This document shows, piece by piece, positions 13,601-62,314 of a stretch of 64,000 nucleotides of DNA (the first letter of the stretch is position 1; each line of letters opens with the position of its first letter). The stretch lies in IMG/VR virus record IMGVR_UViG_3300022719_000071, positions 192,001 to 256,000 of that record; one strand, 5' to 3'. The position numbers were made by a program, and so were the translations under genes. Source of the DNA: a virus. Its lineage: Duplodnaviria; Caudoviricetes. The notes under the pieces are model-generated. The model was not told the origin of the DNA, searched no databases, and saw only the letters and a list, made by a program, of their open reading frames with translations.

Positions 13601-14608
13601 ATGAGCAAGAAGTTTCAAGCATATCTCGCTGAACAGGATGAAGAGTTCACTTACAACATTAAGTCGAGCCGTCATATCCACAACGACGAGACATTCTACA
13701 ACCTACAGCTAGGTCTGTTAGGTTATGATTTGCGCTCTCTTGAGAGAATTTCCTACAACCCACTTGCTGCCTATGAGCCTATGTTCCCACCAAGCCACGA
13801 TGAGCCCGGTATCGATACCGTATTTCACGTGAAGGCTGTCCTGGGAACGGAAGTCCCAAATGAAGTATTACGCCAGAAGATTGCCTACTTCACCGATATT
13901 CATTGGGAGTGGATCGCAGTTTACCGTGAGGGAGAGAAGTGGGAAGGCAATGATCCACTAAACATGGCTGATGAAGAGGGTGGAGAGTATAAGAATCTTA
14001 CACATACGGCTAAGGACTGGAATGGTACCCCAGATGATGGTGACATCGATCCAGACGCTCAGAAGTACGTAGGGACGGCCAGACTGGCTGATTTCATGAA
14101 GGAGCTAGAGACCGACCGCAAGACACGTGAAGCGGAAATCAATGATAGAAATGTGACTCCTAAACTATACGAATCTTTTGTTACTACTCACCTGTGCATG
14201 CATGACATGCTTGGTCACACCCCTCGCAAGGGATACTATCTACTGGAACGTTACACAGTAGATCCCAGCGTGGTCCACGTGTCGGGTCCGTTCAAGAACA
14301 AGCCAATGACCCATGAGTTCGTTTCTGATCTGTTGAAGCGTGGTCGTGGAACATTCAAGGTTCTTGATGAAAACAAGGTTAAGCTGGAAGGACACGACCG
14401 GGATTTTCGCTACACCAAGACGCTTCGTGAGCAAAACCTGAAGAACTACGAGGTCATGGTTAAAGACCAGGATACTGGTAGGTCTTATACTGCTTTAATC
14501 AAGGCGTTTACTGAGACTGATGCACGAGCTAAGGCTGTACGCCGAGTAGCACAAAAAGAAAAACTGGACGCTGGTAGACTGATTGCGATTGAACCCGAGG
14601 CAGCATAA
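13601..14608 (+). CDS. Conserved virion/head-associated hypothetical protein
   Basis: TAAATA at 13570; N-terminus MSKKFQAYLAE resembles T4 capsid-targeting leaders. Confidence 0.6.
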   Translation: MSKKFQAYLAEQDEEFTYNIKSSRHIHNDETFYNLQLGLLGYDLRSLERISYNPLAAYEPMFPPSHDEPGIDTVFHVKAVLGTEVPNEVLRQKIAYFTDIHWEWIAVYREGEKWEGNDPLNMADEEGGEYKNLTHTAKDWNGTPDDGDIDPDAQKYVGTARLADFMKELETDRKTREAEINDRNVTPKLYESFVTTHLCMHDMLGHTPRKGYYLLERYTVDPSVVHVSGPFKNKPMTHEFVSDLLKRGRGTFKVLDENKVKLEGHDRDFRYTKTLREQNLKNYEVMVKDQDTGRSYTALIKAFTETDARAKAVRRVAQKEKLDAGRLIAIEPEAA

Positions 14609-17600
14609 TGCCACGTTTGGCCGAAGACGAAGGCGGCAAGATCAAGCCGTCTGGCTATCAACAAGAGTATACCACTAAGCAAATCGAAGAGCTTCTTCGA
14701 TGTGCCAATGATGCTGTATATTTTATTCGTGAGTATGTATACATCCAGCATCCAACTCGTGGTGCTGTGAAGTTTAACTTGTTTGATTACCAGGAAAGTC
14801 TAGTCGATTGCTACAATAGCAATCGACTTGTAATCGCTCTGCTGTCTCGTCAGTGTGGTAAAACCGCAACCGCTGCTGCTTACCTTTTGTGGTATGCCAT
14901 TTTCAAGGACGATCAGCATATCTTAATTGCTTCCAAGGATCACGATGGTGCCAAGGACATCATGAGTCGTCTGTGGTATGCTTACGAAGAACTACCATGG
15001 TGGTTAAAACCAGGATGCAAGGTCAATCAGGTTCACACTAAAGAATTTGACAACAACTCCAAACTACTTGCTACTGCGACCACAGCAACGTCCGGTCGAG
15101 GTAAGTCCAACTCACTAATCTACCTGGACGAGTTTGCATTCGTTCGTCCTGGTATCGCAAACGAGTTTTGGACAGCCATTTACCCGACTATTGCATGCGT
15201 GTCTGGTGATACACTAGTTTTTACTCAAAGGGGATTTGAAAGAATAGGGAATCTACACTCTGGATGGAAAACCGGAGACTATAAGGAACGAAATGACCTT
15301 ATGATCTATGGAAAAGAAGGAATGGAAAAGGTTTCTCATGGATACGTAAGTCCGTTTTCTGCTACTAAAAAGATTACAACTTCCAAAGGCAGATTTTTGG
15401 AGGCTACTTTAGATCACCCCCTATATGTTCCAAGAAGCTATAGCGGGGAAATGGTTAAGGCAAAAAACTTAACCACTAATGATTACCTAAGAGTTGATGT
15501 GGGGTTAAACCTATTCGGTAATATTACATTGACACCGGATGATGCCTACATGTTAGGAGGATACACCGCCGAAGGGTGGGTATCCGGTAACAACGGAAAA
15601 AAATCTACGGTATGGATCTCAAATACCGATTCTGAATTTAGAAATGTATTCCTGAAAAGAAAAAAAGAATCATTCAGGGTATCTAATTCAGAGCCCACAA
15701 AATTATATTGTACCAGTTCTAAATTAGTATTTCAACTTTCTGAGTGGGGAGTTGATTTACATGCCAAGTGTTACGATAAAAGAGTACCAGATGCAATTCT
15801 TCAAGGTACTAGAGAAACAATTACAAATTACCTATCAGGACTATTTGATGGTGACGGGTGTGCTTGTAATAAAGGGGTGATTTTAACATCAACTAGCCTT
15901 GAGTTATTGAGAGATGTACAATTATTGTTAACAAATCTTGGTTTCCTCCCGGATATTATTCCTAATAAAGAACAGAAATCAAGGGTAATAGCTGACAACC
16001 GAGCTATAACCGAATGCTTCCGTCCTTCTTGGAATCTGTACATACCGTTGAGTCAAACTCAAATGTTTCTTGATATTATTGGATTTAGAATCAACAAAAA
16101 AACGACGGCAGCCAACAGGGTATGTTTTATACGGAATCAGGATGATTCTAAATTGTTTACGATTCCTGTTCGGCATATACGCTCAACCTTAGTGGATCTT
16201 TTAACAGAATCAGGTAAATCCAAAAACTGGTGGAGAACACACGGTCGAAGATTTGACAAATGTTTGGATAATCATCCGAACAGACATGTTACCGTCAATT
16301 GGCTTCGTGGTGTTGAATCTATTGTACGTCATAAATTGTCTCACCTACTAGAGAAATTTGAGGTATTCTTTCAGGAGTATTGTAGGAATTCTACTTGGGA
16401 ACGCATAGCTTACATTGAAGATGGTTCATGCATCACATATGATTTTACCGTCCCTGGTACTCATACCTTTGCACAGAATGGAATGATTGGTTCTAATACT
16501 GGTGGTAAATGTATTATCACATCAACCCCGAACACAGACGAAGACAAATTCGCCTCCATTTGGTTCAACTCTACTAGGCATCCAAGCTCAGATGTTTGGA
16601 GAGATGTGTTTGCTGAAAGGCAGATGTTGGACGTTCCTGATGAAAATACTGAAGAATACGATATCGAGTATGAAACTGAAGACGCTCGTATGCTGTATAG
16701 CAGCAAGGAAGAAGATCTGGACATCGGTGACGATGACACTCTGGAAGGCTTTATTGGTTTCCATGCCCACTGGTCTAGGATCCCAGACGGTCGTGGAGGA
16801 TTTCGTGATGAAAAATTCAAGCGTCAGGTTCTTTCTTCGGGTTTGACTGAGGAGGAATGGCTACGTGAGTATGAGTGTGCATTCGTTTCCGGAGACTCCA
16901 CCTTGATTTCGGCTGCCAAGATGGCCACATTTCGTCAGACTGTTCGTAAGCCTCAATTCATCGATAAATGGGGAATGCGTTGGTACGAGGAGATTCTTCC
17001 GAACCAAATCTATGGTGTGGTTCTTGATCCCTCAGAAGGTGTGGCTGCGGACGATGCGTGTATTCAGGTGTGGGAGATTCCACAGATGACACAGGTAGCA
17101 GAGTGGAACAACAACTACGTGGATCAGGTTGAGCAGACCAAAATGCTTCGTCGTACCTTGAAGCGCATCTTCATGATTCAGATGAATGATCCTGCACACG
17201 AAGGTGGATGCCAAACTTATTACTCTGTAGAGAGGAATGGACTTGGTATCGGTATCTTGAATGCCATCGAGTACGAAGACGAGATGACTTTCCCAGGTTT
17301 CCTCATTGACTCGACCATGACTTCTATTAACGTTCTTGGTGGAGGTATGGATACCAAGGTGACAAACAGGTGGCGTGGCCTTTTGACCAGTGTATCCAGT
17401 AAAAAGCGTTATGCTGTGGAGTTTAAGAACCTCGTGGAGAGAAATCTGTTTGTGGTTCGCTCCAAGCATTTAGCCTCGCAGCTAAAGACATTTGTCAAAA
17501 GCGGACAGTCGTATGCAGCAAAGGAAGGAGCCAAGGACGATATCGTGATGTCCTGTATTCTCATGTGTCACCTTGTAGATGAAATTAGGTACCATGAACC

Positions 17601-17703
17601 AGACCTGGATGACCTGATTCGCCCTGACATAGATGATTATGATCCCGACGACTTTGATCATCCGGATAATATCGCTTTACCGCCTACTGTATCGATATCT
17701 TGA
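14608..17703 (+). CDS. gp17: Terminase large subunit (gp17-like) containing one intein
   Basis: LLSRQCGKT (Walker A), IYLDEFAFV (Walker B), GGKCIITSTPN, VLDPSEGV..D, VERNGLG, DDIVM nuclease motifs. Confidence 0.95.
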   Translation: MPRLAEDEGGKIKPSGYQQEYTTKQIEELLRCANDAVYFIREYVYIQHPTRGAVKFNLFDYQESLVDCYNSNRLVIALLSRQCGKTATAAAYLLWYAIFKDDQHILIASKDHDGAKDIMSRLWYAYEELPWWLKPGCKVNQVHTKEFDNNSKLLATATTATSGRGKSNSLIYLDEFAFVRPGIANEFWTAIYPTIACVSGDTLVFTQRGFERIGNLHSGWKTGDYKERNDLMIYGKEGMEKVSHGYVSPFSATKKITTSKGRFLEATLDHPLYVPRSYSGEMVKAKNLTTNDYLRVDVGLNLFGNITLTPDDAYMLGGYTAEGWVSGNNGKKSTVWISNTDSEFRNVFLKRKKESFRVSNSEPTKLYCTSSKLVFQLSEWGVDLHAKCYDKRVPDAILQGTRETITNYLSGLFDGDGCACNKGVILTSTSLELLRDVQLLLTNLGFLPDIIPNKEQKSRVIADNRAITECFRPSWNLYIPLSQTQMFLDIIGFRINKKTTAANRVCFIRNQDDSKLFTIPVRHIRSTLVDLLTESGKSKNWWRTHGRRFDKCLDNHPNRHVTVNWLRGVESIVRHKLSHLLEKFEVFFQEYCRNSTWERIAYIEDGSCITYDFTVPGTHTFAQNGMIGSNTGGKCIITSTPNTDEDKFASIWFNSTRHPSSDVWRDVFAERQMLDVPDENTEEYDIEYETEDARMLYSSKEEDLDIGDDDTLEGFIGFHAHWSRIPDGRGGFRDEKFKRQVLSSGLTEEEWLREYECAFVSGDSTLISAAKMATFRQTVRKPQFIDKWGMRWYEEILPNQIYGVVLDPSEGVAADDACIQVWEIPQMTQVAEWNNNYVDQVEQTKMLRRTLKRIFMIQMNDPAHEGGCQTYYSVERNGLGIGILNAIEYEDEMTFPGFLIDSTMTSINVLGGGMDTKVTNRWRGLLTSVSSKKRYAVEFKNLVERNLFVVRSKHLASQLKTFVKSGQSYAAKEGAKDDIVMSCILMCHLVDEIRYHEPDLDDLIRPDIDDYDPDDFDHPDNIALPPTVSIS
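15196..16497 (+). mobile_element. Intein (434 aa) with LAGLIDADG homing endonuclease, inserted at PTIA|TGGK
   Basis: Starts CVSGDTLV; block B ATLDHPLY; YMLGGYTAEG and YLSGLFDGDG; ends TYDFTV...NGMIGSN followed by Thr; AT-rich. Confidence 0.92.
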
Positions 17704-53832: not shown

Positions 53833-54579
53833 ATGGAAGTTGTGATCAAAAGCGGGATCGTTAGAATAGGAGAGGGTGGAATTCTTGTTATAGGTGATGG
53901 CATCCCTCCTCACACTCCTCCATCCTCAGCACCCGTATTTTCAGGAGAAGGTACAGACAGTGGTGTTGGTGATATCAACATCAATGTAGCTTCCACCTTT
54001 ACTACTGGAGATTTAGTGTTTGCACTGATAAGCTCGAATGATGCATCCACTGGATTTACATTGGACACTCCTACTGCTGGTACGTCAGGTGCATGGACTA
54101 CGCTATTCAATGGCACCCCGAATGACGGAACAGTGAAAGTGGCACTGTTTTCTAAGGTGGCTACAGCTAATGATAGCTCAATAGTGACATTCACTGGTAC
54201 TGATGAGGTATCCCACATTACTACTGCGGAAATTTACAAAGTTCCAACAGCATCACACAATGTTATAGATCCATCTACTGATGTTACAGTAGAGAACGCA
54301 TCCGGATCTTTAACTGCCACTGGTACATTCCCAGCTATCACTGTTCCAAATAGCAATCGACTTTTCTATTTGGCGGGATATATAGGAAATAACGGTAACG
54401 CTTTTACACCAGAACCACCACCAGGACTATCCTTGATCAATGTGAACGGAATTAGTAATGCAGTCGGTAGGGCATATGACGTTACTGATCAAAACACACC
54501 AGGATTAAAGCCTTCGTTTGACGTATCATTCGCCACGGCTAATGCAACGTTTGTATTCTTTGCAGTGGCATATCCATAA
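53833..54579 (+). CDS. Late, beta-rich Thr/Gly/Ser protein; candidate virion decoration/adhesin
   Basis: TAAATA at 53799; N-terminal VVIKSG.VRIGEGGILVIG and Pro linker. Confidence 0.6.
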   Translation: MEVVIKSGIVRIGEGGILVIGDGIPPHTPPSSAPVFSGEGTDSGVGDININVASTFTTGDLVFALISSNDASTGFTLDTPTAGTSGAWTTLFNGTPNDGTVKVALFSKVATANDSSIVTFTGTDEVSHITTAEIYKVPTASHNVIDPSTDVTVENASGSLTATGTFPAITVPNSNRLFYLAGYIGNNGNAFTPEPPPGLSLINVNGISNAVGRAYDVTDQNTPGLKPSFDVSFATANATFVFFAVAYP

Positions 54580-57724: not shown

Positions 57725-58834
57725 ATGCAAACATACCCGACCCTGTACTCTCGTGACACCATTGGCAACATCCGTGTCTGGTGGATGGAACGTGATGGTT
57801 TTCACTATCGCACCGCATCTGGTATCAAGGATGGAGAGATCGTGCATTCGGAGTGGCGTCGTGCGTACGTGACGAACCAAGGCAAGGCCAACGAACGTTC
57901 CGCCGAGATCCAAGCCGACGCCGAAATCAAATCGTCATACGACAAGAAGCTACGCATGAAGTACCACGAGGCTGAGGCTGACGTGGACAAGGACAAGTAT
58001 TTCAAGCCGATGCTCGCCAAGGAGTTCGGCAAGGAAACTTCCAAGAAGGGCGTTTCCTTCCCCGTGCACAGCCAACCGAAGCTGGATGGCATTCGTTGCC
58101 TTGTCACCGCCGAGGGTGCATGGTCCCGCACAGGCAAGCCTATTCTGGCGATTCCGCACATCCTGGAGGCCCTGGCTCCACTGTTTGCGAAAGACCCCGA
58201 TCTAGTACTCGACGGCGAGCTGTACAATCACGACCTGAAGGATGACTTTAATACCATCACGTCCGTGGTTCGCAAACTGGAGCCTAATCCCGAGCAGCTT
58301 GCTGATTCAGCACGCCTGATTCAGTATCACGTGTACGACTGTCCGTCCGTGGATGGATCATTTGAAATTCGCATTAATACTCTGGTTGCTCTGCTGATGA
58401 ACATGCCCGAGTGTGTCGTTCTGGTGGACACGCAGTTTGTGTTGGATCAGGAGACTCTGGATTTCTTGTACGCTGAGTACATGAAGAACGGCTACGAGGG
58501 ACAGATGGTGCGCCTGGGTGGAACCTACGAGCAGAAGCGCTCGAAGTTCCTATTGAAGCGCAAAGAGTTCAAGGATGCCGAGTTCGAGATCGTGGAGGTA
58601 AAGTCGGGGCAAGGGAATTGGGAAGGTTACGCCAAGACCCTGACCGTGCGTCTTCCTGACGGCAGAACGTGCGATTCGGGTATGCGTGGTAATCAGCAGT
58701 ACCTGAAGGAAGTACTGGAGAACGCTGACTCCTATGTCGGCAAGCAGGCGACCATTCGCTACCAGGATCTGACTCCGGACGGCAAGCTTAGGTTTCCTGT
58801 TGCCGTGGCGCTGCACCTGGAGGAGCGCTGGTGA
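57725..58834 (+). CDS. lig: ATP-dependent DNA ligase
   Basis: QPKLDGIRC (KxDG), LDGELY, YHVYD, GYEGQMVR, LLKRKEFKDAE, LRFPV. Confidence 0.95.
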   Translation: MQTYPTLYSRDTIGNIRVWWMERDGFHYRTASGIKDGEIVHSEWRRAYVTNQGKANERSAEIQADAEIKSSYDKKLRMKYHEAEADVDKDKYFKPMLAKEFGKETSKKGVSFPVHSQPKLDGIRCLVTAEGAWSRTGKPILAIPHILEALAPLFAKDPDLVLDGELYNHDLKDDFNTITSVVRKLEPNPEQLADSARLIQYHVYDCPSVDGSFEIRINTLVALLMNMPECVVLVDTQFVLDQETLDFLYAEYMKNGYEGQMVRLGGTYEQKRSKFLLKRKEFKDAEFEIVEVKSGQGNWEGYAKTLTVRLPDGRTCDSGMRGNQQYLKEVLENADSYVGKQATIRYQDLTPDGKLRFPVAVALHLEERW

Positions 58835-59022
58835 GCGAAATGAAGAAGCCTACTGACATCATTGTTGATATTCATCGTGAACTTGAGGCTCTTGCGGAGG
58901 CTGCTGTACAGGAACAGCATGCTGATGCCAGCCGTGTTGATAGCACACTCGACTACTACGAGGATGAATTTGCGAAATGGATCGTAGCCAAATTTAAGAA
59001 GGAAGTTCTAGATGAAAATTAA
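58831..59022 (+). CDS. Small acidic hypothetical protein
   Basis: 63 aa, GGAGG RBS, coupled to both neighbours. Confidence 0.55.
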   Translation: MSEMKKPTDIIVDIHRELEALAEAAVQEQHADASRVDSTLDYYEDEFAKWIVAKFKKEVLDEN

Positions 59023-59368
59023 GGTCTTTCTGGACGACGTGCGTAAGGAGCCTGTTGGATGGGTACGGGCGCACACGGCCCAGGACGCTATCGAGTGGCT
59101 TCAGGAGAGAGAGGTAAGCCACATCAGCCTGGACCATGACCTGGGTTCAGAAGAGGCTGGTACTGGCTACGACGTGTTGAAGTGGATTGAGAGGGAGGTC
59201 GCCATGGCTGGTTATGAGCCTCCGCACATGACCATTCATTCTGCCAATCCAGTGGGTCGTAAGCGCATGGAGATGGCGATCCAGAGCATCCTGCGTCTGT
59301 ATGAGGTAGCTAACATGGAGTACCAGGAGGATGGATATAGCGGCCCTGGTGAAGATAATTGGGACTAA
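59012..59368 (+). CDS. Cyclic-phosphate-processing receiver-like domain protein
   Basis: VFLDDVR..P.GW, ISLDHDLG, TGYDVLKWIE, IHSANPVGR.RM. Confidence 0.7.
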   Translation: MKIKVFLDDVRKEPVGWVRAHTAQDAIEWLQEREVSHISLDHDLGSEEAGTGYDVLKWIEREVAMAGYEPPHMTIHSANPVGRKRMEMAIQSILRLYEVANMEYQEDGYSGPGEDNWD

Positions 59369-59372
59369 CCTC

Positions 59373-59401
59373 TTGACTTCTTGTTGGGACAATGATAAAT
59401 A
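59373..59401 (+). promoter_or_regulatory. Hybrid promoter of tRNA/ncRNA cluster 2
   Basis: TTGACT-N17-TAAATA. Confidence 0.7.
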
Positions 59402-59404
59402 TAG

Positions 59405-59630
59405 ACTGTGCATTGCTTAGTAGCGGTCTACCACGGGATACACCGGGAGGAGTGAACGCAGTGTGACCGAGTGTGAAGATTCAGACGGCGACCTGTGATG
59501 TGTCAATTCTAAGCAGGAAAGCCCTCTGACATAAGACGTTTGTATCGGATCACTTGAAGAATTGACTGTAACTCACGGCAGCCAGATAAAGGCAGGTTCG
59601 TGAGCGGTGGGATGGAAGTTCCCGCCTATT
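59405..59630 (+). ncRNA. Candidate structured ncRNA (unknown class) upstream of tRNA-Asp
   Basis: No ORF; long-range helices GTCAATTCT/AGAATTGAC and CTCACG/CGTGAG; terminal GGTGGGA-TGGAAGT-TCCCGCC hairpin. Confidence 0.5.
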
Positions 59631-59632
59631 AC

Positions 59633-59710
59633 GGTTGTGTAGCTCAATCTGGTTAGAGCACTCCCCTGTCACGGGAAAGGTTGAGGGTTCGAATCCCTTC
59701 ACGACCGCCA
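59633..59710 (+). tRNA. tRNA-Asp(GTC)
   Basis: GGTTGTG/CACGACC; anticodon arm CTCCC-CTGTCAC-GGGAA; GAGGG-TTCGAAT-CCCTT; G-CCA. Confidence 0.9.
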
Positions 59711-59831
59711 ATTTAGAGAAACACATCGCCTGTCTGAGCTTTGTGTGGGGACCATACCACTAGGTTGATAGTGGACAGACCGAGACCACGGGCTTATGTC
59801 ACGTGGGATGCAATGGAAGTTTGCAATTAAT

Positions 59832-59910
59832 GGCCCGTTAGCATAGTCTGTCCTAATGCGCCAGCTTGTCACGCTGGAGATCAAGGGTTAGAATCCCTTA
59901 CGGGTCGCCA
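59832..59910 (+). tRNA. tRNA-Asp(GTC), variant copy
   Basis: GGCCCGT/ACGGGTC; anticodon arm CCAGC-TTGTCAC-GCTGG; T-loop TTAGAAT; D-loop lacks GG; G-CCA. Confidence 0.72.
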
Positions 59911-59939
59911 AGTTTTTGGCCAACATGGAAGTTCCTTGT

Positions 59940-60078
59940 CAACGTGGTATCAGCGTAAATGACGGGTCGGCCAAGGGGAGTTGTGTGACTTCACTCTCGC
60001 CAAACTCTCTGGAAGGAGAGCTAATATTAAAAGGCCGAAAAGTGATACTGGAGTTCTGTGATTGAATACTCCATTTAA
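59940..60078 (+). ncRNA. Candidate multibranch structured RNA (unknown class)
   Basis: Nested helices GGTATCA/TGATACT, TCGGCC/GGCCGA, GGGAGT/ACTCTC, CTCTC-TGGAAG-GAGAG, then TGGAGT/ACTCCA. Confidence 0.45.
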
Positions 60079-60080
60079 CC

Positions 60081-60188
60081 ATGGTTTTGTTTGTGAAGTT
60101 CGATCACCCGGTGCCTGGGGTTACAAGGCTGATTATGGTTTTGTTTGTGAAATTCGATCACCCGGTGCCTGGGGTTACAAGGCTGATT
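60081..60188 (+). repeat. Tandem duplication of a 54-bp unit
   Basis: 60081-60134 and 60135-60188 are identical except one base (GAAGTT vs GAAATT). Confidence 0.95.
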
Positions 60189-60287
60189 TTTGCTTTAAAA
60201 TAGATATTATTTTATTATAAAAGTCACCGTGACTGCGACTGGATGAGGAAGCCATTTCGCAGATTCCTATGGAAGTTGGGTAAGTTT

Positions 60288-60364
60288 CAGGGTATAGCTC
60301 AGACTGGTAGAGCGCTCGTTTCGGATACGAGAGGCCGCAGGTTCAAATCCTGCTACCCTGACCA
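60288..60364 (+). tRNA. tRNA-Pro(CGG)
   Basis: CAGGGTA/TACCCTG with A73; anticodon arm CTCGT-TTCGGAT-ACGAG; GCAGG-TTCAAAT-CCTGC; CCA. Confidence 0.9.
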
Positions 60365-60366
60365 CG

Positions 60367-60389
60367 ACATGGCGTAGCTCAGTCTGGTT
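60367..60389 (+). pseudogene. Truncated 5' fragment of a tRNA
   Basis: ...ATGGCG-TAGCTCAGTCTGGTT (acceptor strand plus D-arm start) breaks off 14 nt before the stop of the convergent LamG gene. Confidence 0.5.
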
Positions 60390-60402
60390 TCTAGGTGGAT
60401 TA

Positions 60403-61236
60403 TTACGGGAAGATTCCGAATGCACCAGCGTTATAGTGATTTAAAACCTCTGTTGGTGTGAGCACACGATCATAGATAGCAAGTTCATCCACAATACCTT
60501 CTAGTGCTGTAGCAGGCTGTGGTCCCTGCAACGATCCATTGTTATATTCGTTTCCAATCAAACCTCCTGGTGCTTGACCGGAGACTGGTGTGTATTTAAT
60601 ATCACCAGTCTTGGTATCACTGGCGTCGAGTACTCCGTTGACGTAGAGAATACGACTTCCAGAGGTATATGTTCCAACCACGTGATATATTGAGCCTGCC
60701 GGAAAGACATTTCCTTGAAGGTAAGCATTACCTGCGGTGTTTTGGTTAGGACCATCAACGGTACCGAGATAGAAACGGAATGTACCAACGTTAAATCCGT
60801 AAATTAATTTGTATCCAGAGAAATCCAAAGTGCTCCCTGAAGCGTATTGAATGAGCGCTTCGTTCACATTGGGTGGTTTACACCAACATTCGATGGAAAC
60901 CGTCTTGGTTGGTTCCAAGATGGAACTCTGACCAAAGTTCCAATGGTCTGCTAGGGCGTTGTTACCCCCGACTGCTCCATCATTATCTGAAGCACCAGAA
61001 ATTAATCCAGGCTCACCGTAACGCATAGGAGCACCATTCTCAGTAGCTGTGAAACCATTACCCGAAGAATCAGCCAAAGTAGGACCAGAAGATTCACCAG
61101 CACGCCAGTAAGCAATTGGACCATCTTGTAGAATCAGAGATTCATAGGTCATTGGGCCGGATGGACCCAAACTGAGTATACCGCCGTTACTGACAATAAT
61201 TGAAGAACCGTTTTCGATTATAATTATTCCAGACAT
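60403..61236 (-). CDS. LamG/concanavalin A-like lectin domain protein, late; candidate virion decoration
   Basis: PIAYWR..E.SG....DSSGNG, SIECW, YHVVGTY, LYVNGV, F/LEG.VDELAIYDRVLT..EV..HY; TAAATA at 61262 (-); ATG 61236. Confidence 0.82.
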   Translation of the reverse strand: MSGIIIIENGSSIIVSNGGILSLGPSGPMTYESLILQDGPIAYWRAGESSGPTLADSSGNGFTATENGAPMRYGEPGLISGASDNDGAVGGNNALADHWNFGQSSILEPTKTVSIECWCKPPNVNEALIQYASGSTLDFSGYKLIYGFNVGTFRFYLGTVDGPNQNTAGNAYLQGNVFPAGSIYHVVGTYTSGSRILYVNGVLDASDTKTGDIKYTPVSGQAPGGLIGNEYNNGSLQGPQPATALEGIVDELAIYDRVLTPTEVLNHYNAGAFGIFP

Positions 61237-61298
61237 TTGAAATTTCCAAGTTCTTTTGTTATATTTACTGTTCCATCTTAACAACTCGGTCATTAGTC

Positions 61299-61733
61299 AT
61301 GCAAAACCCAGATCCTCATAATCGAGGCATGGAAGCTGTCAAGCTTGCTCATCAATACACCTGGAGACAACAGAAGAGGCTGTTCCCGGTTACTGTTGGC
61401 ATCCTGACATGGATGATGGGATACAGCTTGCTGACGTTCAGCTTTTTCCCTCTGTTTCAACTCAACATCCTTTCGTGGGTAATACTTATGGCCATTATGT
61501 TTTTGACCAGGAAAAAACTGAACGAAGAATTTCTTGAATACTTGAAATGCCAGAGAATTGGAAAAGAGATGGACTGGAAGACGGTCGTCTATAACGGATG
61601 GTTGAACTATGCTGCCACGCTAATCTGCCTGTATTGGGTTTTGATGATCGCTTGGATTTCGTTCTTTATGCCGGAAGGTGGAATCTATGAACTTTACGAG
61701 ATGGATCCCACCAACAAACCCTTGACTTCCTAA
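61299..61733 (+). CDS. Multi-pass membrane protein
   Basis: Three to four hydrophobic segments; 144 aa. Confidence 0.65.
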   Translation: MQNPDPHNRGMEAVKLAHQYTWRQQKRLFPVTVGILTWMMGYSLLTFSFFPLFQLNILSWVILMAIMFLTRKKLNEEFLEYLKCQRIGKEMDWKTVVYNGWLNYAATLICLYWVLMIAWISFFMPEGGIYELYEMDPTNKPLTS

Positions 61734-61752
61734 CCCTAACTACCTATAAATA
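61722..61752 (+). promoter_or_regulatory. Hybrid promoter of tRNA cluster 3
   Basis: TTGACT-N17-TATAAATA. Confidence 0.75.
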
Positions 61753-61949
61753 CAACATGCAACGACGGTATCCTGTCGCATTGTGTTTACCATCATAAAG
61801 TGTGCACACTTTATTGATGAGAATGAGGCTTTTTATGTGAGATTTTGCGCCTCGTGTTATGGACATAATAAGTTTGTCATAGCACACCAGACATTGAATC
61901 TGGGTAAGCAGCAACCTATTCATTCATTAATGGGAATGAAGTTGTACCA

Positions 61950-62022
61950 GCTTAATGGTGGAATGGTTAGACACATCTGGTTTAAAACTAGACACATTGC
62001 AGGTTCGAATCCTGCTTAAGCA
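61950..62022 (+). pseudogene. Degenerate tRNA-Leu(TAA)
   Basis: Leu-type D-arm TGGTGGAATGGTTAGACAC; anticodon arm TCTGG-TTTAAAA-CTAGA; GCAGG-TTCGAAT-CCTGC; only a 6-bp acceptor, no long variable arm, no CCA. Confidence 0.65.
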
Positions 62023-62102
62023 ATTGGATAAATCATCACCGTGACTGCGATGGAGGATACATACGCAGATATCGATGGAAGTTCGATAAAATTGCAGACA
62101 CT

Positions 62103-62181
62103 CAGGGTATAGCTCAGTCTGGTCAGAGCGCTGGTCTTGGGAACCAGAGGTCCGCAGGTTCGAATCCTGCTACCCTGACCA
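62103..62181 (+). tRNA. tRNA-Pro(TGG)
   Basis: CAGGGTA/TACCCTG with A73; anticodon arm CTGGT-CTTGGGA-ACCAG; GCAGG-TTCGAAT-CCTGC; CCA. Confidence 0.92.
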
Positions 62182-62314
62182 AATCTTGTACTAAATGCTT
62201 ACAAGAAAAGTCGTTAACCGAATTTCCGGATTAGGAGTCGATCCAAAGGGACTTATCAATCATGGTGTAATCGGCACATATTCAGAACTCATGGATATTC
62301 AACGGGAGATCCGA

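Follow-up and report, generated by a model that had tools for sequence, protein, structure and literature searches.

A conserved two-hairpin module in the predicted leaders of tRNA-Pro and tRNA-Asp genes of a giant phage clade

The window analyzed here is a stretch of 64,000 nucleotides (positions 192,001 to 256,000) of IMG/VR record IMGVR_UViG_3300022719_000071, a 360-kb giant phage genome with 42 tRNA genes. Two tRNA operons in this window contain the features below, among which four copies of a two-hairpin module (hairpin A followed by hairpin B) were scored with a covariance model, R1.

59373..59401 (+): promoter of tRNA operon 1, by direct reading (TTGACT 59373-59378, 17-nt spacer, TAAATA 59396-59401)
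59408..59571 (+): non-coding leader RNA before module copy 1, with conserved blocks in relative L200
59572..59626 (+): module copy 1, R1 56.2 bits, 6 nt before tRNA-Asp; hairpin A CTCACG 59572-59577 / CGTGAG 59599-59604, hairpin B 59606-59626 with 7 bp and loop TGGAAGT
59633..59710 (+): tRNA-Asp(GTC) 1, ARAGORN; Rfam tRNA 65.7 bits
59786..59825 (+): module copy 2, R1 50.2 bits, 6 nt before the second tRNA-Asp; hairpin A CCACG...CGTGG 59786-59806, hairpin B 59809-59825 with 5 bp
59832..59910 (+): tRNA-Asp(GTC) 2, ARAGORN; Rfam tRNA 61.3 bits
60005..60020 (+): related apex hairpin in an inter-tRNA non-coding RNA; U.G closure and GGAA tetraloop in the fold
60225..60280 (+): module copy 3, R1 61.3 bits, 7 nt before tRNA-Pro(CGG); single-stranded CACCGTGAC, hairpin A CTGCG 60233-60237 / CGCAG 60258-60262, hairpin B 60266-60280 with 4 bp, one being G.U
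60288..60364 (+): tRNA-Pro(CGG), ARAGORN; Rfam tRNA 68.9 bits
61722..61752 (+): promoter of tRNA operon 2, by direct reading (TTGACT, spacer, TATAAATA)
61949..62023 (+): tRNA-like gene lacking an encoded CCA, with anticodon TAA, ARAGORN; Rfam 52.1 bits
62037..62088 (+): module copy 4, R1 69.7 bits (the top copy), 14 nt before tRNA-Pro(TGG); single-stranded CACCGTGAC, hairpin A CTGCG 62045-62049 / CGCAG 62064-62068, hairpin B 62070-62088 with 6 bp
62103..62181 (+): tRNA-Pro(TGG), ARAGORN; Rfam tRNA 69.2 bits

Both operon promoters are predicted to be sigma-70-like with a T4-late-like -10 element. The TTGACTT...TAAATA / TATAAATA layout stands at the head of syntenic operons in relatives L200, L203, L204, and L214, and that of operon 2 is kept in L200, L203, and L214. 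A simple promoter scan missed the operon 1 promoter because its -10 rule demands T at position 6. The leader RNA at 59408..59571 contains no credible open reading frame, has no Rfam match, and folds no more stably than its shuffles (z = -1.07). The tRNA-like gene at 61949..62023 lies directly 5' of module copy 4, and its orthologs in the relatives carry other anticodons. The tRNA region also bears signs of insertion and decay: the tRNA at 60371 is truncated, and a LamG gene is present or absent.

An earlier, sequence-only reading of this DNA had listed six hairpins with a constant loop, interleaved with tRNAs, as a single class. All six strings are present where that reading placed them, and four of them form the class. 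At 59606-59626, 59809-59825, 60266-60280, and 62070-62088, the loop TGGAAGT is flanked by 7, 5, 4, and 6 complementary pairs, respectively, and closed in each case by an A-U pair. These hairpins precede tRNA-Asp(GTC), tRNA-Asp(GTC), tRNA-Pro(CGG), and tRNA-Pro(TGG) by 6, 6, 7, and 14 nt, which agrees with the proposed distance of 6 to 14 nt from a tRNA 5' end. The description as interleaved with tRNAs needs a limit, as just 4 of the genome's 42 tRNA genes carry the hairpin. Folded alone, hairpin B is weak (-2.3 to -5.5 kcal/mol) except in copy 1 (-14.5 kcal/mol, z = -3.4). Such low predicted stability would be typical of sites that are stabilized by a bound partner.

The other two listed hairpins, at 59922 and 60005, are those that lie away from any tRNA. 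The 60005 hairpin, CTCTC-TGGAAG-GAGAG, sits within an inter-tRNA non-coding RNA and adjoins no tRNA. It can be drawn with a hexaloop or with a U.G-closed GGAA tetraloop and has a related apex; its sequence is unchanged in L200, and its L238 ortholog, ACTTGA-TGGAATT-TCAAGT, has another stem and the loop TGGAATT. We rejected 59922 as a member of the class: it has only one pair in the common register, L200 reads AAGGAAGTG at this place, and the 3-bp AAC/GTT alternative differs from the predicted fold.

A chance origin of the four-hairpin class is excluded. The window contains TGGAAGT 22 times, versus 10.3 +/- 3.3 times in shuffles, and the true common word is the 9-mer ATGGAAGTT, shared by four copies whose stems are unrelated. 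This 9-mer occurs seven times on the plus strand and once on the minus strand in 360 kb, and five of these occurrences fall within 2.5 kb. Among the 106 TGGRAGT sites genome-wide, at least four flanking pairs are found in five (2.3 expected), four of which are the tRNA-proximal hairpins. The matches of R1 in the 360-kb genome, with its 42 tRNAs, are exactly the four copies.

The module consists of two adjacent hairpins, with the tRNA-proximal hairpin always second. Hairpin A has a stem of 5 to 8 bp whose CG/CG top is conserved, and its G-rich loop, 10 to 35 nt long, varies. Hairpin B follows after 1 to 3 nt. Its stem of 3 to 7 bp (mostly 4 to 5) is variable, the closing A-U pair is invariant, and the loop is UGGAAGU; another 3 to 20 nt separate it from the 5' end of the mature tRNA, the RNase P site. 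The sequence-only reading had called for the motif to be counted in related phages, and R1 recovered 17 further copies in 10 metagenomic relatives (L200, L203, L204, L214, and L237-L242; the matches in L201 and L243 were left out as duplicates of L200 and L242). Over the resulting 21 modules, the loop is UGGAAGU in 19, UGGGAGU in one, and UGGAAUU in one, and the closing A-U pair never changes, while the flanking membrane open reading frame retains only 56, 34, and 27% identity between relatives. Length and sequence vary freely in both the loop of hairpin A and the spacer that leads to the tRNA. A constant loop on differing stems, as originally described, extends to an invariant apex on covarying stems across 21 copies.

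Pairing across 16 aligned copies indicates that both helices covary. Paired cells make up 88% of the total, versus 68% in shuffles and 23 to 41% with slid partners, double-change cells number 51 versus 18 in shuffles, and 10 of 13 pairs include a compensatory change, all in an alignment that was fitted to the model and thus favors the structure and whose copies inside one genome are paralogs and orthologs rather than independent samples. G.U wobbles occur in four stems and every copy is co-oriented with the tRNA genes, which places the structure on the tRNA-sense RNA strand. Comparative sequence evidence shows the module to be a real RNA element whose apex is under strong purifying selection.

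The distribution of the copies also suggests their history. Every relative that has the region carries the module before tRNA-Pro, and some carry it before tRNA-Asp. Copy 3 has orthologs with differing stems in L200, L203, L204, L214, L238, and L241, and copy 4 has orthologs in L200/L201, L203, L214, L237, L238, L239, L240, and L241. The module precedes the first tRNA-Asp in the window and in L200, where hairpin B of copy 1 has the same sequence, and it precedes the second tRNA-Asp in the window and in L241. Copy 2 is missing from the matching spacer of L200, L203, and L214, and L203, L214, and L242 have no module at the tRNA-Asp places. The pre-tRNA-Pro position is ancestral, with secondary spread to tRNA-Asp. 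R1 found no copy in 80 more distant IMG/VR relatives, and a search of 59300-62300 against Rfam 15 at E-values up to 5 returned tRNA matches alone. The module is a new, clade-specific RNA motif outside Rfam.

Spread to the two tRNA-Asp sites, in a tRNA region with insertion and decay, would also be expected of a DNA-level hairpin, such as a recombination, homing, or mobile site that moves tRNA cassettes or an N4-type hairpin promoter. We regard a DNA element as very unlikely. The G.U wobbles make the fold strand specific, the copies are always in tRNA sense at a fixed distance to the tRNA 5' end, and no endonuclease or transposase gene is adjacent. Moreover, the paralogous copies differ except at the apex, which indicates old copies kept by selection, not recent transposition. 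The apex might instead start translated mini-ORFs: ATG GAA GTT would encode Met-Glu-Val, as in a leader-peptide device within a tRNA operon, and the ATG keeps one register in all copies. Such a mini-ORF is scarcely credible: its frames stop after 4 to >40 codons, many entering the tRNA, conservation ends at the third codon, the AUG is partly paired, no Shine-Dalgarno sequence lies at a usable distance, and one copy reads ATGGGAGTT.

The interpretation offered by the sequence-only reading had two arms, a sponge for the host regulator CsrA/RsmA and a recognition tag for a tRNA-processing or antitermination factor, and it is partly supported, with the tag fitting best and the sponge drawing weak support. 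According to the sponge proposal, the GGA apex and a second GGA in the hairpin-A loop would bind host CsrA/RsmA, with the leaders that RNase P releases serving as a phage-made sponge or with CsrA controlling precursor stability. What stands in its favor is the GGA in weak loops and the extra GGA upstream. All 21 copies of hairpin B present GGA in the loop on short weak stems, all three loop variants retain it, and hairpin B has an A two bases before GGA and a GU after GGA-N, as do the SELEX consensus RUACARGGAUGU and the CsrB repeats CAGGA(U/A/C)G (PMC7652899). The hairpin-A loops of the first 12 aligned copies hold 11 GGA, versus 5.5 in composition-preserving shuffles (p about 0.005), and 10 of 16 aligned loops hold at least one, located 20 to 35 nt upstream and thus inside the 10-to-63-nt range for bridging; the other 6 lack it, which counts against the proposal. 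A host-like gene with its nearest relatives in Pseudomonadota is weakly in line with such a host.

The form of the loop nevertheless argues against CsrA/RsmA as the partner. Known criteria are an ANGGAN hexaloop, an ACA that is 100% conserved in SELEX, and sites 10 to 63 nt apart (PMC7652899), whereas hairpin B is a heptaloop with the A paired and ACA is missing in every tRNA-proximal copy, where the preceding bases are GGA, CAA, CTA, CGA, or TGA. Added loop nucleotides also reduce RsmE affinity (PMC7652899). Constraint falls on each of the seven loop bases and on the closing pair, and the loop bases are conserved together with two closing pairs across deep divergence, where A-N-GGA needs far less: 19 of 21 loops are identical at seven positions while the flanking protein is 27 to 56% identical, whereas CsrA repeats would be expected to vary outside the core. 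Each genome has only 4 modules, versus 7 to 22 packed sites in known sponges, CsrA (PF02599) is absent from the 360-kb phage genome, and the Rfam CsrB/RsmX/Y/Z models have no match, whether the gathering threshold is applied or E-values of up to 5 are allowed. The match to the consensus that had been put forward, ACAUGGAAGU, was on the 59922 hairpin, which is no conserved member. The module resembles CsrB, CsrC, RsmX, RsmY, and RsmZ in repeating units with GGA in short weak loops on different stems and departs from these sponge RNAs in that each unit is tied to one tRNA gene. On balance, we consider binding of CsrA/RsmA unlikely.

A partner may also be dispensable if the module is a structural cis element, either an insulating or boundary hairpin that prevents mispairing between leader and tRNA or the 3' protective end of the upstream non-coding RNAs after RNase P cleavage. 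Each copy does terminate an upstream non-coding segment right before the RNase P site, and the U.G-closed GGAA tetraloop of the 60005 hairpin would be a stable cap. A cap or insulator has no need of an invariant heptaloop and closing pair in 21 copies, however; hairpin B is thermodynamically weak in most of them, and the remaining 38 tRNAs do without the module. A purely structural role therefore seems improbable to us.

An invariant loop is also what kissing with an invariant RNA partner predicts. UGGAAG can pair with CUUCCA, positions 32-37 of tRNA-Gly(UCC), such that the leader would bind or sense that tRNA. The anticodon loop of the phage tRNA-Gly(UCC), CUUCCAA, contains this 6-nt complement, the apex would display the glycine codon GGA with its flanks, and the UGGGAGU variant still pairs through a G.U at the wobble position. 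The UGGAAUU variants, in contrast, lose one pair, no functional link between Gly and Pro/Asp is apparent, and the operons of eight genomes contain no conserved complement to the loop in cis. A 7-nt loop can also be fitted post hoc to many partners. We find a loop-loop contact with tRNA-Gly(UCC) quite unlikely.

The loop pattern U1, G2, G3, R4, A5, K6, U7 would fit a T-loop-type or a U.G-closed GNRA fold, judging by its bases. Scored over the 21 copies, the 60005 hairpin, and its ortholog, U-G-G-R-A-K-U agrees with the T-loop core rule (U1, G2, purine 4, A5, later bases free). The T-loop core comprises five nucleotides with U (or A) at position 1 and A at position 5, G being common at position 2, and a T-loop has a reverse-Hoogsteen U1-A5 pair and a foreign base intercalated between positions 4 and 5. 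The UG..A rule is that of PMC3664808, in which a UG..A T-loop belongs to the elbow-docking modules found in RNase P, in the L1 stalk, and in Stem I of the T-box. Hairpin B is T-loop-like in opening with U-G, in its purine at position 4, and in an invariant A5 followed by variable bases, and it shares with the tRNA T arm a 7-nt loop, a short stem, and a tRNA-related setting. Unlike in tRNA T loops, positions 2 and 3 are GG rather than U-C, and, unlike in the T arm, the closing pair is A-U rather than G-C, with the fold of hairpin B being read from sequence. The second T-loop, AG..A, that an elbow-docking module needs to interdigitate with the UG..A loop has no fixed counterpart, as AGNNA appears in some hairpin-A loops only and in no fixed place. 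A T-box riboswitch would carry a specifier loop in Stem I and a UGGN bulge in its antiterminator; Rfam gave no T-box match, and a tRNA gene rather than a terminator or antiterminator lies downstream. There is a slim prospect that the apex serves as a T-loop or codon-display knob by which the phage pre-tRNA leader docks another tRNA, either by the elbow or by the anticodon of tRNA-Gly(UCC). If true, it would represent T-box-like RNA-tRNA recognition in a giant phage of a Gram-negative host and would couple tRNA-Pro and tRNA-Asp maturation to the state of the tRNA pool.

The reading that fits the evidence best is the recognition tag, given the invariant apex, its fixed place 3 to 20 nt before the tRNA, and its conservation in relatives. 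We give about even odds to the view that a putative trans factor docks in a sequence-specific manner on the apex, which would serve as a knob on the pre-tRNA 5' leader. The module would be transcribed together with the tRNAs as a cis element of this leader, and the trans-acting partner that would read its apex is most likely a phage or host protein. This partner may act on the precursor beside the RNase P site, where it would gate, assist, or protect the 5' maturation of just these tRNAs, and it possibly stays on the 60-to-80-nt leader RNA released by RNase P. No adjacent RNA-binding gene is consistent across the short relative contigs. Against a docking knob stands the lack of the module at 38 of 42 tRNAs.

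To our knowledge, the maturation and regulation of tRNA precursors in giant phages with dozens of tRNA genes are almost undescribed beyond their reliance on host RNase P. Because the loop bases are fixed while the stems and neighboring proteins diverge, the latter to 27% identity, the tightly selected leader module implies that a selected group of the phage tRNAs has a step or factor of its own. Identification of the partner would reveal either a new RNA-binding protein of the phage, whose RNA handle is compact and portable, or a new means by which a phage titrates a host factor with by-products of tRNA processing. The module is also a clean marker of this uncultured phage clade, which comprises the 360-kb giant phage and at least 10 relatives.

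Several known systems share parts of this design. The tRNA cluster of T4 yields stable RNAs and dimeric precursors, and here, too, a T4-related phage has tRNA operons with structured non-tRNA RNAs and processing by host RNase P; we know of no comparable conserved leader hairpin described in T4. The boxB hairpins of lambda and P22, bound by the N protein, and the coat-protein operators of MS2 and PP7 are phage hairpins read at the loop. Like these, which are read by protein, hairpin B sets a constant loop on a short stem whose sequence is free, and with GGAA placed on a U.G pair it is reminiscent of boxB and its GNRA-like fold. Compared with a lambda nut site, in which boxA shortly precedes a 5-bp hairpin, the conserved upstream single strand, CACCGYGAC, is not boxA-like, and the loop is of 7 nt rather than a GNRA-like pentaloop; an N-like or coat-like gene and a boxA-like partner sequence were not found. 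Unlike boxB and the MS2/PP7 operators, the module sits in a tRNA leader rather than in an mRNA or nut site. In Escherichia coli, the 3' external transcribed spacer of leuZ is reported to be a sponge of two small RNAs, RyhB and RybB. That spacer lies 3' of its tRNA and pairs with small RNAs, whereas the phage module belongs to a 5' leader and presents a conserved apex, but in both cases a by-product of pre-tRNA processing would become a small, stable, functional RNA.

The sequence-only reading had described six hairpins with a UGGAAG(U) loop, at 59606, 59809, 59922, 60005, 60266 and 62070, as one class interleaved with tRNA genes. All six strings lie at these coordinates, and four of the hairpins (59606, 59809, 60266 and 62070) do form a class: in all four an A-T pair closes the common loop TGGAAGT, and the flanking pairs number 7, 5, 4 and 6, respectively. 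These four also precede tRNA 5' ends, by 6, 6, 7 and 14 nt, as had been noted. Hairpin 60005 also exists, although its loop has six bases, and its predicted fold is a GGAA tetraloop closed by a U.G pair. The one at 59922 falls outside the class: it has a single pair in the common register, it is not the predicted fold, and the nearest relative carries AAGGAAGTG. Interleaving with tRNAs holds to the extent that the element stands before four of them, but these are only 4 of the 42 tRNA genes that ARAGORN identifies in the phage genome.

The true common word is the 9-mer ATGGAAGTT, found seven times on the plus strand and once on the minus strand of the whole genome, with five copies within these 2.5 kb. 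Relaxing the loop to TGGRAGT yields 106 sites genome-wide, of which 5 have at least four flanking pairs (2.3 expected), and four of these five are the tRNA-proximal hairpins. A sixth copy of the 9-mer, at 53833, forms the Met-Glu-Val start of a 248-codon ORF. That the hairpin copies are themselves Met-Glu-Val starts of mini-ORFs is hardly credible, as the frames vary arbitrarily in length and show no conservation past these codons, none has a ribosome-binding site at a suitable position, and in one copy the sequence is ATGGGAGTT.

The phage genome is represented in IMG/VR by a single contig of 360,469 bp with 46.7% G+C, ~91% complete, and the window covers bases 192001-256000 of it. The large terminase shares ~38% identity with its counterparts in PA5oct, Atu_ph07 and comparable giant phages related to T4, and megablast and blastn searches with 59350-62250 against 50,697 phage records returned tRNA matches only; together, these results point to an uncultured jumbo phage to which no described phage is closely related. 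The large terminase ORF (14608-17703) spans 1031 codons, of which ~52% aligns to other terminases in two pieces, suggesting a possible intein or other insertion. Four DNA metagenome runs, all from one study, contain the stretch, and no RNA run is among the runs listed. The tRNA genes concerned form two operons, with the following features at or near their 5' ends:

57725-58834: ATP-dependent ligase gene, 5' of tRNA operon 1, beside the cRec gene
59012-59368: gene for cRec (cyclic-phosphate processing receiver, PF20274), directly 5' of tRNA operon 1
59373-59401: operon 1 promoter (TTGACT, 17 nt, TAAATA)
61722-61752: operon 2 promoter (TTGACT...TATAAATA)

Operon 1 consists of a ~165-nt non-coding leader, two tRNA-Asp genes, ~315 nt of non-coding sequence and tRNA-Pro(CGG). 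In operon 2, a non-coding leader of ~190 nt is followed by a tRNA-like gene that lacks CCA and then by tRNA-Pro(TGG). A minus-strand LamG-domain gene and a 144-codon membrane ORF lie between the operons. In jumbo phages, cRec has been proposed to remove 2',3'-cyclic RNA ends for ligases (PMC7824862), and the pair of cRec and ATP-dependent ligase genes also adjoins the operon in L203, one of the relatives' contigs described below.

Upstream of each tRNA-proximal hairpin (hairpin B), at a distance of 1-3 nt, lies another hairpin (hairpin A), which in the window has stems of CUCACG/CGUGAG, CCACG/CGUGG or CUGCG/CGCAG and a loop of 10-20 nt. The two tRNA-Pro copies also share a single strand, CACCGUGAC, 5' of hairpin A. 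We obtained syntenic relatives, all short metagenomic contigs, via flanking ORFs, one metagenome pattern scan, and a membrane-ORF profile search with context look-ups. Among the 25 stretches that the pattern scan returned, L214 alone was real; L228 was rejected as a chance match within a bacterial coding region. We built a covariance model of the module from ten copies. In the genome of this phage it calls four copies and no others, and it calls another 17 in relatives L200, L203, L204, L214 and L237-L242 (L201 and L243 duplicate L200 and L242), the kind of recurrence that the sequence-only reading had proposed to look for. At genome positions 276,940-276,992, outside the window, TTGGAAGTA lies ~30 nt upstream of tRNA-Arg(TCG), flanked by no more than two pairs, and the model makes no call there.

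The module precedes tRNA-Pro(CGG) and/or tRNA-Pro(TGG) in every relative that covers the region. Copies ahead of tRNA-Asp are confined to the window (two), L200 and L241 (one each), and no such copy is present in L203, L214 or L242. The tRNA-Pro leader is thus the ancestral site, from which the module later spread to tRNA-Asp. Eighty more distant IMG/VR relatives, identified via DNA ligase at 40-52% identity, contain tRNAs and no module by the covariance model, and the module is likewise absent from the leaders of tRNA-Pro in Sinorhizobium phage Phosso and Xanthomonas phage XacN1. Exact 21- and 23-mers of hairpins 59606 and 60005 and a degenerate module pattern had no match in viral_contigs, and a collection scan with the 14-mer CACCGTGACTGCGA produced chance matches only. 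Rfam 15 returned tRNA matches only in both gathering and E-value modes, the text of a catalogue paper on 10,006 viral candidate RNAs mentions no tRNA-leader motif, and a literature search for the heptamer yielded microRNA and siRNA papers only. Our search of the literature, which was not exhaustive, found no leader module described as conserved ahead of phage tRNA genes.

A larger cassette around the modules, 60288-62181, is conserved in L200, L203, L214, L238 and L241. It begins with a module and tRNA-Pro, an optional LamG gene and a membrane ORF of ~135-145 codons (invariant N-terminal D-P-H; no Pfam or PHROG family), and continues with a promoter, a non-coding RNA and a tRNA of variable anticodon, followed by another module and its tRNA-Pro. 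The anticodon-variable tRNA-like gene lies just 5' of the module and tRNA-Pro(TGG):

61949-62023 (window): anticodon TAA
L200:3705-3780: anticodon TTC
L203:9283-9356, minus strand: anticodon TTG
L214:4282-4353: anticodon TTG
L237:742-814: anticodon GTG
L238:1703-1777: anticodon TTG
L239:1151-1221: anticodon TTG
L240:1403-1476: anticodon TGG
L241:2782-2851: anticodon TGG

It has no encoded CCA in the copies read (window and L203), unlike most of the phage tRNAs, and it is a class-I tRNA body with an apparently switching anticodon. tRNA-Asp2 (59832-59910) has a D loop without GG and the T loop TTAGAAT, in which A replaces C56, and its elbow may be defective; its L200 ortholog is canonical. Between tRNA-Pro(CGG) and the minus-strand LamG gene, adjoining the 3' end of the latter, lies a truncated tRNA 5' half (acceptor strand and D arm, 60371-60395), and L200 carries an intact second tRNA-Pro(TGG) at this site (1874-1950). 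In L204 (1062-1114, minus strand), the tRNA-Pro(CGG) that follows the module has no T arm at all: its 3' acceptor strand and CCA come straight after the anticodon arm, and it is not called by ARAGORN. The non-coding stretches 59408-59571, 59911-60224 and 61753-61948 are conserved in blocks among relatives (e.g., GTGACTTCAC before the 60005 hairpin), have no Rfam match, and look like further uncatalogued phage RNAs that tRNA processing would free. Between tRNA-Asp2 and tRNA-Pro(CGG), a ~55-nt unit occurs in two tandem copies (60079-60190), each with a T-arm-like GTGA-AGTTCGA-TCAC hairpin.

Across 16 aligned copies of the module, 88% of cells hold a pair, versus 68% in shuffles and 23-41% with partners slid by 1-3 columns, both sides have changed in 51 cells versus 18 in shuffles, and 10 of 13 pairs show compensatory change; these figures lean towards structure, as the alignment was fitted to the model and the copies are related. 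The divergence of hairpin B stems is evident by eye (CCTA/TGGG, TATCGA/TCGATA, GTCGA/TCGGC, GCGA/TCGC, GTGA/TCAC, CTGA/TCAG and TGGA/TCCA), and adjacent membrane ORFs of module-bearing genomes share just 56, 34 and 27% identity. The hairpin-A loop and the spacer between hairpin B and the tRNA change freely. Four stems contain G.U pairs, which would be A.C on the opposite strand, and all copies are oriented as their tRNAs, which together assign the fold to the tRNA-sense transcript. A DNA-level element is accordingly a very improbable reading. A pseudoknot between loop B and a CCG in the 5' tail was rejected, its pairing being absent in L200:1724 and L238:1781.

The hairpin B loop is UGGAAGU in 19 of 21 modules, the exceptions being UGGGAGU in L200 and UGGAAUU in L240, beside an assembly gap; the L238 ortholog of the 60005 hairpin also presents UGGAAUU, with a different stem beneath it. 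No copy departs from the closing A-U, which in most copies is followed by a G-C pair. Five to seven frozen apex bases on a stem of any sequence argue that something reads this knob, and a purely structural role is improbable. We judge it an even call that the apex serves as a sequence-specific docking knob on the pre-tRNA leader, where a docked reader would act next to the site of RNase P cleavage or on the leader once it is released. The reader may be a dedicated phage or host protein. Within the loop, U1, G2, G3 and A5 are fixed, position 4 is a purine and position 6 is free, a pattern that fits a T-loop of the UG..A type, from which RNase P, the L1 stalk and T-box Stem I form their dock for the tRNA elbow (PMC3664808). 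It also fits a GNRA tetraloop (GGAA or GGGA) closed by U.G, with one U bulged out. The three loop variants do not discriminate between any of the readings considered here. Membership among double T-loop docks was rejected, as hairpin A does not consistently offer the AG..A T-loop that would match.

Two specific partners were weighed against the docking knob. By published rules (PMC7652899), binding sites of CsrA/RsmA, which the sequence-only reading had proposed, display GGA in the loop of a weak hairpin, the loop being an ANGGAN hexaloop with ACA before it and GU after it, and two sites are spaced by 10-63 nt. Most isolated B hairpins are indeed weak (-2.3 to -5.5 kcal/mol) and present GGA with A at -2 and GU. 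Of the 16 hairpin-A loops, 10 contain a second GGA and six have none; the first 12 loops together hold 11 GGA, versus 5.5 in shuffles. However, the hexaloop and ACA are missing, the phage has no CsrA gene, and, as the chief objection, the non-core loop positions lack the expected freedom. Binding of the apex by CsrA/RsmA is improbable, to about the same degree as a purely structural role. As for the host, a YkuD protein weakly hints at Pseudomonadota. Kissing with the anticodon loop of tRNA-Gly(UCC) is somewhat less probable still: UGGAAG is the exact complement of CUUCCA in that loop, including the phage's own, and the GGG variant would retain a wobble pair, but the UGGAAUU variants lose one pair, no rationale connects Gly with Pro or Asp, and no cis complement of the ACUUCCA type is conserved in eight operons.

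Among known systems, the docking knob would work like boxB and the coat-protein operators, phage hairpins that are read through their loops. Its likeness to CsrA sites is at the level of sequence, and its likeness to functional tRNA spacers is one of position. By the tests run, it is not a member of any of these groups, and it is best described as a candidate loop-specific recognition hairpin with a new sequence, in a new context and with a putative reader.
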